From NCBI GenBank assembly GCA_964583675.1, contig CAZOVH010000003.1:12167-76166 (forward strand): a stretch of 64,000 nt of DNA, given 5' to 3'. Shown here piece by piece: positions 3,435 to 48,067 of the stretch. This DNA is from an uncultured Candidatus Saccharibacteria bacterium. GTDB taxonomy: Bacteria; Patescibacteriota; Saccharimonadia; CAILAD01; GCA-016700035. Both the position numbers and the translations under genes were made by a program. Position 1 is the stretch's first letter, and every line of letters starts with the position of its first letter. The notes beneath the pieces were generated by a model that was given only the letters and a program-made list of their open reading frames with translations, was not told the DNA's origin and searched no databases.

Positions 3435-4261
3435 GACAGTGCCCGCTTAATCTGAGCAGACCATACGTCTGAATCACCTATGGTGTTTTCACTGATAATA
3501 CTAAAAAGATAGTGTAGCACCCTCAGTCGCTCCTGTAATGCTACTCCGCGAGAACGAGCAAAGACTGTAACTGGCAATAAGGCTAACACCAAGTTTCGAG
3601 TCTGTTTTTGCAAGCCTTGCAGTGGCGTATGTATCAACATATCACTTGCAGGAATGTAACTATACAGGTTTACTGCGTCATACAGCATAACAAAATCATG
3701 TGGAAGCTGAAGACTCCGTAAAAATTCGGCTACTCCAAAAATTCCCCGCGCCTTAATGATCTTCTGCCCTTGGGCAAACTGCATTTTCTCAACGAGGTCT
3801 GTACTTGCCAGCCAAGTAATGTGGGTATTCTCCTGAATGCCCGAATCAATACTCCATAAAGAGAGAGCTTCATCTGTCAGTATTACCGGCACAGTAACAT
3901 TGGGCAGCAAACGAGCATACATTACCTGCTCGGTACTCGTAAGCTGCATATTCGGCCCCACAACCACCAAACCAGCGCTATCGATCAACTGCCAAGCTGT
4001 GAGCTCACGCTGTTTACGTATATCGCCATCCATTGAAGCTTGAGTAATCCCGCTGGGCAAAAAGCGCTCCACACCAGCCGGCACAACCAATGAAACCGGC
4101 AAGCGAAGAGCCTGCCAAACACCAAAGAGCTGTGAGATATCCGCGAAGCCACGCGAACTACCACCACAGAGCGTTATGCTAGTGCGGGTTGCCGGACCGA
4201 GGGCCAGGGCAAATAGGGCAGAATCATCTTCTAGCTTATCTACCTGCAAAATATGCGACAT
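3431..4261 (-). CDS. Divergent CofD/YvcK (UPF0052)-like protein; assignment is tentative
   Basis: Motifs CGGSSRG and VVVGPNMQLTS resemble the DDGGSSGR and GPGSLYTS motifs of YvcK/CofD. The N-terminal GGGTG P-loop is missing. Confidence 0.35.
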   Translation of the reverse strand: MSHILQVDKLEDDSALFALALGPATRTSITLCGGSSRGFADISQLFGVWQALRLPVSLVVPAGVERFLPSGITQASMDGDIRKQRELTAWQLIDSAGLVVVGPNMQLTSTEQVMYARLLPNVTVPVILTDEALSLWSIDSGIQENTHITWLASTDLVEKMQFAQGQKIIKARGIFGVAEFLRSLQLPHDFVMLYDAVNLYSYIPASDMLIHTPLQGLQKQTRNLVLALLPVTVFARSRGVALQERLRVLHYLFSIISENTIGDSDVWSAQIKRALS

Positions 4262-4282
4262 ATCCCTCCTAGTAAGTAAGAA

Positions 4283-4702
4283 TTAGACGAGTGCGTCAAC
4301 TGCGCGCAAATATGCACGCAAGACATCACCTTCGCAAATAGTGGCAAACTCTAGGCGCGCACTAGTTGTCATCAGGCTCATGTGGCTCTGCATATAAGCA
4401 TCGAAGTACATCTCAGCTTCACTGTCGTCAGTGAGTCCAAGATCTTTCCGTATCTTTTCAAGAAAAGTCGTATATGACACAGCATCCCCCTTAGGAACCG
4501 GTCGATGTAAGCCAAAGCGATTACCAAGCCGACGACGAGTCATACCTGGTAGGAGCTGTTGGGCGAATTCGCGCGAATCTGTGCCAAATAGCTCGAGCAC
4601 ATGTCGGTCGAGGACTTTCATCGCGTGAGCAGCTGTGCTCTCAGAGGCTACATTGGCATGTTGTTTTAATAGAATTGTGGCGTAATCGTGATGCATAATC
4701 AC
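4283..4702 (-). CDS. Hypothetical protein (139 aa)
   Basis: Compact ORF with native codon usage and no recognisable motif. Confidence 0.45.
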   Translation of the reverse strand: MIMHHDYATILLKQHANVASESTAAHAMKVLDRHVLELFGTDSREFAQQLLPGMTRRRLGNRFGLHRPVPKGDAVSYTTFLEKIRKDLGLTDDSEAEMYFDAYMQSHMSLMTTSARLEFATICEGDVLRAYLRAVDALV

Positions 4703-44248: not shown

Positions 44249-44611
44249 ATGAAAGCCAATATCCATCCAGATTGGGTCGAAACCAAGGTCACTTGCCTCG
44301 GTTGCGACACTACTTTTACCAGCCACTCTACCGTGCCAGAAATCACCGTAGAAATTTGCTCAAACTGCCACCCGTTTTATACCGGTAAGCAGAAGCTTGT
44401 GGACACTGCTGGACGTGTTGATCGCTTCGAAGCATTACGCAAGAAGAGCGGTGAATTGAAGCAGACTGCAAAACCAAAGAAGACCACTAAAAAGGTCGAG
44501 AAGGTTGCGGAAGCCCCTAAGGACGCAAAAGCTGCCTTAAAAGAAATCAAGGCTGAACTTAAAGACCATACGGTAGACGCCAAACCAGAAGCTAAAACCG
44601 AAAGCGAATAA
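44249..44611 (+). CDS. rpmE: 50S ribosomal protein L31 (zinc-ribbon type) with a Lys-rich C-terminal extension
   Basis: MKANIHPDW...CLGCDTTF...[13 protein letters not shown] has both CxxC pairs. Confidence 0.85.
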
Positions 44612-44687: not shown

Positions 44688-45749
44688 ATGATTGATCAAG
44701 CCTCCATCGATAAACTCACCGCTCGCCTCGCCGAACTCGAAGCTGAATTGGCGCGCCCAGAAATCTACGCCAGTCCAAAAGCGGCGGGCCTGGTACACGA
44801 ACAGCGCGATCTGCAGACTCGCCTGGAACTCTTTCAGGATGTGCAAAAAACCGAGACCGACCTAGAAGACGCTAAGGCCCTCGCAAATGATCCTGAAATG
44901 GGTGAATTGGCTCGCGCTGAGATTCCTGAGCTTGAAGCCAAACTTGAAGGCTTACAAGATAAAGTTCGTGCCGCCTTGGTTCCGATTGATCCCAATGATA
45001 ATAAAACTGCCATCATTGAAATTCGCGCTGGTGCCGGTGGTGACGAAAGTTCGCTATTTGCTGGCGAGCTAGCCCGCATGTATGCCCGCTTTGCAGAAGC
45101 CCACGGCCTAAAACTCACAATGCTCTCAGAAAGCCCTAACGAAGTTGGTGGGTATAAGGAAGTAATCATTGAAGCGTCCGGGCCAGAAGCTTATGGTCAG
45201 CTCAAATACGAATCTGGCGTACACCGCGTGCAGCGCGTGCCCGCTACCGAAAGCCAAGGTCGCACCCACACCTCAACCGTAACTGTAGCTGTTTTGCCAG
45301 AAGCCGAAGAAACCGAGCTGGAAATTGCCGACAACGAAGTCCGCATCGATGTTTATCGCTCATCTGGTAACGGCGGCCAAAGCGTAAACACTACCGACTC
45401 AGCGGTGCGCCTTACTCACTTACCAACCGGCATTGTGGTTACCTGTCAGGACGAGAAGAGTCAGATAAAAAACCGCGCCAAAGCTATGAACGTGTTGCGT
45501 TCGCGACTCTTAGCACTGGAAGAAGAAAAACGACGTAAAGAACTAGGTGATGCTCGCCTCTCGCAAATTGGCACCGGTGATCGCTCCGAAAAAATCCGCA
45601 CGTATAACTTTCCGCAGGATCGTATCACTGATCACCGCATTGGCTTTACAACCCATGGACTTGCCCGGTTTATGGATGGCGCGCTCGATGAGCACCACGA
45701 AGCCCTCAAGCAAGCCGACATCGATCACGCCCTCGCCGAACAATCATGA
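44688..45749 (+). CDS. prfA: Peptide chain release factor 1
   Basis: PAT (PxT) codon-recognition tripeptide and the GGQ motif ([20 protein letters not shown]). Confidence 0.9.
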
Positions 45750-46558
45750 TTATTCGAGTTTTTCTCAAGACCGCCATTGCTACGCTCAAGACCGCCGAAA
45801 TTGAGGGCGCCCAAACGGATGCCGAGATTATCCTGGCTTATGTACTGGGTAGAGACCGAGCCTGGCTCTTGGCGCACGACGATGCCGAACTGGATAGCGA
45901 GCAAGTGAAAGCTGCAAACACACTGCTGGAACGCCGCGCTAAGCGTATTCCGATGAGCTACGTTTTAGGCGTGCGTGAGTTTGCCGGACTAGAGTTTAAG
46001 ATAGACGACCGAGCACTAACGCCACGCGTGGAGACAGAAACTATCGTCGCGGAAGTTACCAGGCGTGCGCCACAAGGAGTGCGTGTGCTAGATATCGGCA
46101 CTGGTTCTGGGGCAATGGCGATTGCGCTCAAACATTTACGGCCAGACCTGCATGTTATGGCCAGCGAAGTAAGCTCCGATGCGCTCGAATTAGCCTGCGA
46201 GAATGCTCAAAACTTACTCAAATCAGACAAAGACATAGGGTTCGTTTTATCGGACCTATTCGAAAATATCGATGGCACGTTCGATGTGATTGTCGCGAAT
46301 TTGCCGTATGTGACCCGCGAGATGGAGCTGATGCCTGAAGTGCAAAACGAACCGGACGTGGCACTATTTGGCGGTGCGGTCGATGGGCTTGATTTGTATC
46401 GAAAGTTTTTTACTCAATTACCAAACCACATCAACGACGCGTCCCAAGTTTGGACCGAATCTGACCCTTGGCAGCAAGACGACCTCATTAAGCTCGCGGA
46501 GGAATCCGGGCTGCGCAAGATCTATCAAGACTATTTTATCCTTGGCTTCGAGAGATAA
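45746..46558 (+). CDS. prmC: Release factor glutamine N5-methyltransferase PrmC/HemK
   Basis: Overlaps the prfA stop. SAM motif DIGTGSGA and a VANLPY (NPPY-type) catalytic motif. Confidence 0.85.
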
Positions 46559-46570
46559 TCACCATAAGCA

Positions 46571-46599
46571 TTGACTTTTCTAGATATTTATGCTATTAT
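46571..46599 (+). promoter_or_regulatory. Near-consensus sigma-70-type promoter with no protein gene downstream on this strand
   Basis: TTGACT, a 17-nt spacer, then TATTAT. The next 250 nt contain no credible ORF and end in a strong terminator. Confidence 0.5.
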
Positions 46600-46605
46600 A
46601 GCTAG

Positions 46606-46844
46606 CATAATCTTTCGTTAGATTAGCACCTTCTAAACACCTCTTTATCTCTTCCCTCTTGATAGCTCACAAAGAAATCAGGCTCGAGACAACCGTAAGT
46701 ATTCCGTTTAGTTGCGCTTACTGTTTGGATCCCGATTTTGAATATGGATTGAGGAAAGGACATCGCGGTACAACTGCCACATAAATCGCAAAAACACCCA
46801 TCTAGTGCCCTGGCTTGCCAGAGAGTTCGACGGGTGTTTTGTTT
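46606..46844 (+). ncRNA. Candidate small non-coding RNA (about 240 nt) bounded by a consensus promoter and a rho-independent terminator; family unknown
   Basis: Promoter at 46571-46599. Terminator aaaACACCCatctagtgccCTGGCttgCCAGagagttcgacGGGTGTtttgttt at 46790-46844. No ORF longer than 40 codons with an RBS lies between them. Confidence 0.3.
46790..46844. terminator. Bidirectional terminator (compound hairpin) shared by the candidate sRNA and the convergent htrA gene
   Basis: Outer stem ACACCC/GGGTGT enclosing an inner stem CTGGC/GCCAG, with A and T runs on either side. Confidence 0.6.
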
Positions 46845-46852
46845 AGATAATT

Positions 46853-48067
46853 CTATTCAGTAGTTTGTGGCGCTTCTTCTAACTTTACATCCACGGTCTG
46901 CTCTTTGCCGTCGCGCCAATATGTTACTTTGACAGTATCACCAGGGCTAAAGCCGACCACAACGCTCTGCAGCGGATTATCACGCGTAATCTCTTTATCG
47001 TTCAACTTGGTGATGATATCGCCTTCTTTCAGGCCTGCCTTAGCAGCTGGAGATCCAGAAATTACTGCAATAGTTTGCTCATCCCCACGCAACAGCGCAC
47101 CCTGCTTCACTGGCAAATTATTACGCTCGGCAAAACTATCAGTCAACATCACGTAGCGCACGCCAATATATGGGCGTACTATTACTCCGCGGGTCTTTAC
47201 AGAATCCAGCGCACCTTTTACCTGATTGATTGGAATGGCAAACCCAATGTTCTGCGCATTCTCACCACTCGCTACAGCCGTGTTAATACCAATTACTTGA
47301 CCGTCAATATTCAGGAGCGGCCCACCAGAGTTGCCTGGGTTAATGGCTGCATCGGTCTGAAACAAGTTGGTGAGAGTCTCAGTATTGCCCTGCCCATCGG
47401 CAGCCTGTACTGGGCGTTGCTTGCCGGAAATTACACCAGTTGTAACCGTATTGCTGTACTCACCCAGAGCATTACCAATAGCGATCGCGCGCTGACCTAC
47501 CTCCACCTTATCGGAATCACCTAGATCGGCCGCTGGAAGTCCACTGGCTTCCACCTTTACGAAAGCGATGTCGTTTGACGAATCAAGCGCCAATATCTTC
47601 CCCTCAAACTGCTTACCTTCCGTATTTGTTACCGTCACCGTACTAGCCCCCTGCACCACATGCTTATTCGTAAGAATCAGGCCATCAGAACTTACAATCA
47701 CCCCCGTACCCGCACCTTGCTGCTGCTGAGCCCCAAAAAAGCTCTGCACCGTGGTTGAGGTATTAATTGAAACGACGCTTGGTCCAACCTTTTTGACTAA
47801 ATCAATGGTTGCTGAGTTTTCCTGCAATGTTACTTGCTTGGATTGCTCGATAGCACTTTGCTGCCCGGCTGGCATGAAGCGTACAAATAACGCTGCGCCT
47901 AGTACGCCGGCAACAAACGCCAGCAGTACGGTTATTCCCCAGCCTGGTCCTCCACTCGACTTGGCTGCAGGTTTTTTTGTAGCGCCAAAATTAATCGGTG
48001 GCGCCGATGATACGCTGCTCACATTACTCGTTTTTTCTTTTTTGACTGGTTTCGATTCTTCTTGCAT
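46853..48067 (-). CDS. htrA: HtrA/DegP-family serine protease with C-terminal PDZ domain
   Basis: N-terminal TM and a trypsin-like catalytic triad including GNSGGPLLN, followed by a PDZ segment. Confidence 0.85.
   Translation of the reverse strand: MQEESKPVKKEKTSNVSSVSSAPPINFGATKKPAAKSSGGPGWGITVLLAFVAGVLGAALFVRFMPAGQQSAIEQSKQVTLQENSATIDLVKKVGPSVVSINTSTTVQSFFGAQQQQGAGTGVIVSSDGLILTNKHVVQGASTVTVTNTEGKQFEGKILALDSSNDIAFVKVEASGLPAADLGDSDKVEVGQRAIAIGNALGEYSNTVTTGVISGKQRPVQAADGQGNTETLTNLFQTDAAINPGNSGGPLLNIDGQVIGINTAVASGENAQNIGFAIPINQVKGALDSVKTRGVIVRPYIGVRYVMLTDSFAERNNLPVKQGALLRGDEQTIAVISGSPAAKAGLKEGDIITKLNDKEITRDNPLQSVVVGFSPGDTVKVTYWRDGKEQTVDVKLEEAPQTTE

Follow-up and report, generated by a model that had tools for sequence, protein, structure and literature searches.

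SreA and SreB of Listeria and EutX and Rli55 of Enterococcus and Listeria are reportedly trans-acting small RNAs that derive from leaders or riboswitches, and the Gram-positive small RNAs (sRNAs) RsaE/RoxS and RNAIII are pyrimidine- or C-rich molecules that pair with Shine-Dalgarno (SD) regions. A further point of comparison is given by the type I toxin mRNAs hok, fst, tisB, and bsrG. Members of the candidate phyla radiation (CPR, or Patescibacteria) have tiny genomes and few classical regulators, and to our knowledge almost nothing is known of regulatory RNAs in Saccharibacteria or other CPR; a literature search found no description of the motif presented here or of CPR-specific sRNAs. This motif lies between prmC and the convergent htrA in a 64,000-nucleotide stretch of the Saccharibacteria contig CAZOVH010000003.1 (the window) and comprises, at positions 46571 to 46844, a putative promoter, a predicted RNA without an open reading frame (ORF), and an intrinsic terminator. 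On balance we think it probable that the element is the orphaned leader of a clade-specific operon, with a promoter that still fires and possibly some remaining activity in trans.

As with SreA/SreB and EutX/Rli55, a structured 5' leader with its own promoter and a terminator would here yield a stable small RNA able to act apart from its genes. Those RNAs, however, precede intact operons, terminate conditionally, and have known ligands and targets, whereas in the window the coding part has been deleted and the RNA matches no described family. The element shares with RsaE/RoxS and RNAIII an own promoter, an intrinsic terminator, and an exposed CU-rich stretch that is complementary to purine-rich ribosome-binding sites, and relatives of the window also carry a C-run in a hairpin loop, but there is no homology to these sRNAs, the apical C-run has been lost in the window, and the origin from an mRNA leader is demonstrable.

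We compared prmC neighborhoods from a genome collection and from contigs encoding PrmC homologues and found 10 distinct loci that bear the element (L001, L002, L003, L011/12, L013/14, L015/16, L017, L018/19, L020, and L022). At each of them the promoter and an RNA of ~160 nt directly follow prmC. A covariance model built from the alignment (R1) detects one copy per locus at 120 to 192 bits, and its only match in the window spans 46606-46763 (161 bits; E value, 6e-31). Mean pairwise identity reaches 90% in the core hairpin of the RNA and 95% in a short GA-box, as opposed to 47 to 50% in two linkers; for comparison, prmC is 48% identical at third codon positions and 86% at first and second positions. 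These data support a conserved, structured, noncoding plus-strand RNA unit that, as judged from sequence, has its own promoter and terminator. Its features, numbered by window position, are as follows.

46571-46576, plus strand: -35 hexamer TTGACT (TTGACT/TTGACA, invariant in the 10 related loci)
46591-46599, plus strand: extended -10 element TGCTATTAT, with TG at 46591-46592 and TATTAT at 46594-46599; 17-nt spacer between the hexamers
46606-46844, plus strand: predicted ORF-less transcript of ~239 nt that would end in a U-run, its extent taken from promoter and terminator
46608-46625, plus strand: 5'-terminal hairpin UAAUCU/AGAUUA (z score, -4.4), with a compensatory A-U to C-G change in L020 and L022
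46626-46650, plus strand: pyrimidine-rich, anti-SD-like tract GCACCUUCUAAACACCUCUUUAUCU, predicted single-stranded in minimum free energy and centroid folds
46651-46658, plus strand: CU-box, 5' strand of the closing helix P1 (partner, 46751-46759)
46675-46738, plus strand: core, a long irregular hairpin of AAAUCAGG/CCCGAUUU, the invariant CUCGAGACAACC/UGUUUGGAU, and then the apical stem GUAAG/CUUAC
46751-46759, plus strand: GA-box GAGGAAAGG, 3' strand of P1, pairing with the CU-box
46759-46763, plus strand: deletion junction GACAT, 5 nt that align to both collinear blocks
46764-46789, plus strand: remnant tail (CGCGGUACAACUGCC...) of a 3' untranslated region (UTR) RNA, its last ~25 nt, with the pairing partners deleted
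46790-46844, both strands: bidirectional intrinsic terminator AAAAACACCC...GGGTGTTTTGTTT, common to the convergent htrA

In all 10 element-bearing relatives the RNA forms the 5' leader of an operon for small membrane proteins: the last leader hairpin runs directly, without a U-run, into a purine-rich SD site, after which comes a start codon. The first gene position (ORF1) is occupied by at least five unrelated types of small membrane protein of 39 to 97 amino acids (aa), and most loci continue with a conserved ORF2 of 64 to 65 aa (MPRNRYRRRRQLS...) with two hydrophobic segments. A second conserved noncoding block of ~130 nt follows the last ORF, and the terminator comes next. The homologues are thus not free-standing sRNA genes that terminate ahead of the next gene, in any of the 10 ORF-bearing loci; they have what is expected of a cis-regulatory leader, a conserved and structured 5' UTR domain with covariation, while in the window no gene is left downstream. 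The initial annotation had proposed a candidate sRNA of about 240 nt, and of this proposal the ORF-less transcription unit stands, since no ORF follows in the window, but the free-standing gene does not, the unit being by origin an operon leader orphaned by a deletion.

Two blocks of the window are collinear with the L011 spacer: 46560-46763 matches its positions 2-208 (identity at 171 of 203), and 46759-46847 matches its final stretch, 684-773 (identity at 82 of 88). The counterparts of the junction in relatives read ..GGGAGAU/GCAGC in the leader and ..AAGAGAU/CGCGG in the 3' RNA (slash at the junction). A deletion of ~0.5 to 0.6 kb between two GAGAU-like 5-nt copies joined the leader to the operon tail and the bidirectional terminator. 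Compared with L011 the window lacks 475 nt, and compared with L002 it lacks ~610 nt; lost with this piece were the last leader hairpin, the SD ribosome-binding site, one or more genes, and almost the entire 3' RNA. A covariance model of the full 3' RNA (R2) has no match in the window, and a tblastn search of the window for the relatives' ORFs returned none. Because L010, an independent metagenome contig nearly identical to the window, has the same junction, we take the deletion to be real and older than the divergence of the two. Read together, the sequences make it very likely that the window element is the orphaned leader of a lost operon.

The module has a narrow distribution. In more distant relatives (PrmC identity of ~72% or less: L005, L023, L025, L026, and L027) the module is absent and prmC abuts htrA, the convergent genes ending a few bases apart or overlapping and no terminator separating them, from which it follows that the bidirectional terminator came in together with the module. 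L004 lacks the RNA operon and has only a separate third-gene module. RNA and operon are one accessory unit confined to a narrow Saccharibacteria clade. A scan of metagenome DNA with a strict pattern returned only the near-identical L010 and a chance match (L009) inside a flagellar ATPase gene, in a collection that evidently lacks some element-bearing contigs, such as the Joint Genome Institute (JGI) contig of L012, and a scan of viral contigs for the element gave no matches.

The initial annotation had counted TTGACT-N17-TATTAT among the best promoter matches in the window, and this holds: 15 sites in the 64 kb (both strands) match at least 10 of 12 promoter positions, and only 5 of these, the element's included, also carry the TG. 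The match is not significant by itself, as 19 promoter-like matches over 14 kb compare with 15.4 +/- 4.1 in shuffled sequence. We consider the promoter credible because it is conserved in the 10 related loci and not because of the match: TTATGCTATTATA is invariant in all homologues, while the promoter spacer and the discriminator vary. Transcription is predicted to start at 46606 +/- 2, 7 nt past the -10 element. Downstream, a long interrupted hairpin is preceded by an A-run and followed by a U-run, and the terminator is therefore bidirectional. It folds at -18.8 kcal/mol on the plus strand (z score, -2.8) and at -26.2 kcal/mol on the minus strand (z score, -5.9), ends 8 nt from the htrA stop codon, and has homologues with compensatory changes in L002, L011, L014, and L020; a simple terminator scan missed it because its loop exceeds 8 nt. 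The compound terminator of the initial annotation is accordingly present and folds on the plus strand, but it belongs to the relatives' operon and to htrA, is more stable on the htrA strand, and is foremost the terminator of htrA.

The unit in the window thus has the build expected of a trans-acting sRNA, its own promoter and an intrinsic terminator with no ORF, with start site and RNA ends that are predictions, a point that weighs against our reading of the locus. One could instead hold that there is no independent transcript and that the stretch consists of an rpmE-prfA-prmC 3' UTR together with the terminator of htrA, with hexamers that go unused. Consistent with this, prmC lacks a terminator of its own ahead of the element and its stop codon is just 12 nt away from the -35 hexamer, the terminator is the stronger on the htrA strand, and promoter-like matches are no commoner than in shuffled sequence. 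Since nothing terminates prmC before the -35 hexamer, a read-through 3' UTR is indeed also to be expected, which does not exclude the short transcript. Invariant hexamers and TG in 10 diverged loci, set among a varying spacer and discriminator, are however the footprint of a promoter in use; in the relatives it is the sole candidate for expressing the small-protein operon; and the relatives without the module, with prmC abutting htrA, have no such UTR. We regard a 3' UTR without its own transcript as very improbable and think that the unit is likely transcribed as a discrete RNA, probably at a good level.

A protein product from either strand is scarcely credible. The ORFs that overlap the spacer are mechanical ones of 27 to 46 aa, none of them has an SD site, and homologues differ by indels of 1, 2, and 4 nt inside them, so no reading frame is conserved on either strand. 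Candidate AUG and UUG starts are likewise not conserved, and substitutions follow helix pairing and not codon periodicity. The initial annotation, which had seen no plausible ORF between promoter and terminator, was right on this point. An upstream ORF or leader peptide was considered and rejected, as its start codon is not conserved among the homologues; the AUG at 46747 is missing from 5 of the 10 ORF-bearing relatives.

Comparison of the homologous intergenic regions, the check on covariation that had been suggested at the outset, shows that the fold is kept. Across the 10 ORF-bearing leaders 46 pairs are formed in 99.1% of alignment cells, against 38 to 53% when the 3' partners are slid by 1 to 3 columns, and three pairs in three different helices show compensatory change, a covariation score reached by none of 500 shuffles. 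The apical stem of the core has compensatory changes among the homologues, and in the window lineage helix P1 carries one from C-G to U-A at alignment columns 54/162. There are 22 G.U cells, including one invariant G.U pair, that favor the plus strand. Within the core, CUCGAGACAACC/UGUUUGGAU contains C.U and G.G mismatches and a 3-nt bulge, the apical loop reads ..CCGUUUAG.., and the internal and apical loops never vary. The tract at 46626-46650 is CACCUCCUU in most relatives, resembles the 3' end of 16S rRNA, and is partly conserved. Relatives alone have a further hairpin immediately 5' of the SD site.

Some features of the fold count against this interpretation. Covariation is thin, at 3 to 4 pairs, in close homologues whose helix positions mostly never vary, and the fold is not thermodynamically unusual (z score, -0.2 for the whole RNA and -0.5 for the core), the better z score on the minus strand stemming from the terminator. 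With z scores of only -0.2 to -0.5, the case for the RNA rests on conservation and not on folding energy. A kink-turn (K-turn) in the core was rejected by eye, as the 3-nt bulge is followed by GU and not GA. A pseudoknot of 6 bp between CUAAAC (46633-46638) and GUUUAG (46706-46711) is no more than a hypothesis, as L018 and L022 disrupt the pairing, L020 weakens it, and a rough estimate puts such a match at ~5% by chance. The invariant core contains two perfect 6-nt palindromes, CUCGAG (46683-46688) and GGAUCC (46727-46732), opposite each other in the consensus fold; these could support RNA dimerization or be recognized as DNA.

Whether the RNA has stayed under selection since the deletion can be approached through L010. 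The window and L010 differ at 57 of 1,810 positions, with 39 differences at 520 third codon positions (7.5%) and 4 in the 249-nt spacer (1.6%), a deficit with Fisher P values of 6e-4 (spacer) and 0.025 (RNA body alone). Of the four spacer changes, one lies in a hairpin loop, one in the CU tract, one in a linker, and one in a stem, where it converts G.U to G-C, and none of them hits an invariant position. Element divergence relative to prmC divergence is 1.21 in the window, within the 0.87 to 1.60 of ORF-bearing relatives, and no 249-nt stretch of prmC has fewer than 7 differences between window and L010. We take these comparisons as suggestive of continued constraint on the orphan RNA.

The same data can be read in another way, in which the element is a functionless deletion scar whose RNA, perhaps still made, is inert and looks conserved because too little time has passed since the deletion for promoter and terminator to have decayed. 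Several results that weigh against continued function would fit this reading. The window-lineage element has 9 private changes, against 0 to 5 in most relatives, among them an A.C mismatch in the core helix and a C.A mismatch in P1, and it has lost the C-run of the apical loop, which every ORF-bearing relative retains unchanged; such private changes could be early decay. All parts with a role in cis (hairpin, SD site, ORFs, and 3' RNA) are gone, and 15.5% of coding windows of 249 nt, all in prfA, also show 4 or fewer differences from L010. A 274-nt stretch of prfA (44998-45271) has no differences at all despite the 7.5% divergence of third positions overall, and this patchiness suggests recombination or very uneven rates, which weakens simple rate tests. 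On the other side stand the unaccelerated divergence ratio, the absence of any equally conserved 249-nt stretch in prmC, and the compensatory double change in P1. The deletion is older than the 7.5% third-position divergence of the two genomes, and no invariant position of core, boxes, or promoter has changed since, with the sole stem change improving its pairing. We consider a scar unlikely (were the RNA no more than that, the locus would be ordinary but still of use for annotation), and we judge the chances that the orphan RNA is still functional to be about even.

How an orphaned leader could act is best approached from the relatives, where the leader most likely gates translation in cis. 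We hypothesize that the ~25-nt CU tract pairs with the SD site of ORF1 and that the CU-box/GA-box helix, together with the invariant irregular hairpin, would decide the exposure of the tract by binding a factor or ligand. When the relatives are folded as single sequences, the SD of ORF1 pairs with the CU tract, which lies ~165 nt upstream, and the whole leader is enclosed; the predicted unpaired probability of this SD is 0.30, compared to 0.51 for 27 neighboring genes (Mann-Whitney P = 0.003). Inspection by eye suggests an alternative partner for the SD-like GA-box, a conserved ACCCUU in the last hairpin, and in L022 shifted changes preserve 5 bp of this helix. Such an arrangement would be that of a translational gate. 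In the window, the strong conserved promoter would still fire, and the product would be a stable RNA of ~240 nt with a 5' hairpin, a folded core, and a terminator hairpin, in which the tract, having no cis partner, is predicted to be single-stranded. As that partner was deleted, any remaining activity would have to be in trans, either by pairing with other mRNAs at their purine-rich ribosome-binding sites or by titration of a factor that binds the core.

Several observations tell against these steps. The homologous leaders in the SD accessibility comparison are not independent samples, no covariation links the CU tract to any SD, and pairing of CU-rich sequence with a purine-rich SD is compositionally almost unavoidable. 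A search for covariation between the tract and the ORF2 SD was also unrewarding, since that SD is always GGAGGTGA while the tract varies. A trans-target scan over the 64-kb window gave nothing convincing, and we identified no ligand, protein partner, or trans target. We state the gate step only as a hypothesis because the tract and SD do not covary and CU/GA pairing comes easily in such compositions, and we hold anti-SD pairing as the mechanism only tentatively.

A different origin for the same observations would be an autonomous regulatory RNA gene, either a trans-acting sRNA or a sensor of a ligand or protein, with the ORFs as interchangeable cargo and the window as its minimal form. The RNA is far better conserved than what lies downstream, with ORF1 replaced by at least five unrelated proteins behind an invariant leader; the protein families are tiny, as a homologue search among 5.8 billion proteins found 2 clusters for ORF1 and 6 for ORF2; promoter and fold persist intact in two ORF-less genomes; and the 5' hairpin, exposed pyrimidine-rich tract, and terminator resemble the build of an sRNA. 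An autonomous gene is hard to reconcile, however, with the lack of any terminator between RNA and ORF1 in the 10 ORF-bearing loci, where the SD directly follows the last hairpin, or with the absence of the RNA from the operon-less relatives L004, L005, L023, L025, L026, and L027, which shows that it travels with the operon. A single ORF-less lineage was found, and the 64-kb scan identified no targets. We rate an autonomous gene as unlikely, and we are more doubtful still of its extended form, in which the leader would be an autonomous sensor or regulator of a new class that, with the 3'-UTR RNA, brackets an exchangeable slot for small membrane proteins. If this extended form were true, the 5' RNA would be selected with the slot empty, an sRNA caught arising from an mRNA leader by loss of coding sequence. 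The window allele is of interest as a natural experiment in which the RNA was kept and all coding sequence removed; it would show whether such a leader has its own function and would illustrate cleanly the origin of an sRNA gene from an mRNA.

Neither RNA of the module belongs to a described family. The initial annotation had recognized no tRNA, tmRNA, signal recognition particle (SRP) RNA, RNase P RNA, or 6S RNA by eye, and database searches bear this out: at gathering thresholds Rfam 15 has nothing at the element in the window scan or in 9 related loci, and ARAGORN finds no tRNA or tmRNA in five related loci (L001, L002, L015, L018, and L022). At E values up to 10, the region 46400-47000 gives only a 14-bit, terminator-like match to STnc310, and the L002 module gives chance matches only. 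The element is a new, narrowly distributed family of structured RNA, and the 3' UTR of the relatives holds a second one. Both motifs, the ~200-nt 5' leader and the ~130-nt 3'-UTR three-way junction present in relatives only, show conservation and covariation and are tied to variable small membrane proteins beside the envelope protease gene htrA. The leader shares with orphan riboswitch candidates invariant internal and apical loops, variable linkers, helices with some covariation, and a place in the 5' UTR by the SD, but it differs from them in that the downstream genes are unrelated small proteins with no coherent pathway and in being confined to one narrow clade.

The 3'-UTR RNA begins as a three-way junction that is closed by a CCUCUC/GAGGGA helix and contains two hairpins with GNRA caps; two more helices come after it. 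Compensatory changes occur in 8 of the 32 pairs of this RNA, which has no Rfam match. The module might suggest an integron-like cassette, with conserved flanks and variable ORFs, but no integrase-like family is encoded in the five fully listed loci (no formal test was made), and with its GNRA tetraloops and G.U pairs the module seems rather to function as RNA. Positions at the respective loci are as follows.

ORF1: L001, 4689-4913; L011, ~4065-4184; L015, ~4066-4287; L018, ~4047-4340; L022, 4053-4271
3'-UTR RNA: L001, 5147-5274; L002, 5515-5643; L011, 4389-4517; L015, 4490-4616; L018, 4354-4478; L020, 2904-3036; L022, 4277-4412
Separate membrane-protein module: L001, 5375-5896; L003, 5674-6228; L004, ~2440-2900 (here without the RNA operon)

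The proteins of the relatives' operon are as obscure as its RNAs. Searches of the ORFs against Pfam, PHROGs, and NCBIfam gave nothing significant, with no toxin, holin, or defense family. ORF2 behaves as a real gene, because its substitutions (64/34/106 by codon position) concentrate at third positions. The ORF1 proteins match no family and many have a highly charged C terminus; their ORFs have 55 to 65% G+C, compared to 49% for the window and 40% for the RNA. The relatives resemble type I toxin mRNAs in that their ORFs are small and hydrophobic, the SD is predicted to be occluded by a long structured 5' UTR, and the 3' end is both conserved and structured, but their proteins match no toxin family, ORF1 is not one family, and the window has no ORF. 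A type I toxin-antitoxin locus is not supported: the window lacks a toxin ORF and neither the L002 nor the L015 module contains a conserved minus-strand (antitoxin) promoter, although a divergent antitoxin might be encoded elsewhere.

Some relatives have, in addition, a separate module for a membrane protein of 153 to 184 aa, headed by a TTGACT promoter of its own and a short conserved leader (GUACCUUCGAACGAAAG). We note that the gap between prmC and htrA is a hot spot for small accessory membrane-protein genes.

The gene coordinates agree with the placement of the element between prmC and the convergent htrA made in the initial annotation. The spacer between the two genes measures 294 nt, and the neighbors, from the gene list of the window, are as follows.

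44249-44611, plus strand: rpmE
44688-45749, plus strand: prfA
45746-46558, plus strand: prmC
46853-48067, minus strand: htrA, convergent with prmC (stop codon, 46853-46855)

On the minus strand, the spacer is followed by htrA, a gene for a 259-aa membrane protein, and a LytR-family gene. The PrmC protein of the window is 69 to 83% identical to proteins of Saccharibacteria metagenome-assembled genomes, and the PrmC cluster of the window lineage has 12 members. Elsewhere in the 64 kb, the sole match to Rfam at gathering level is a tRNA gene at 2025-2108 on the minus strand.

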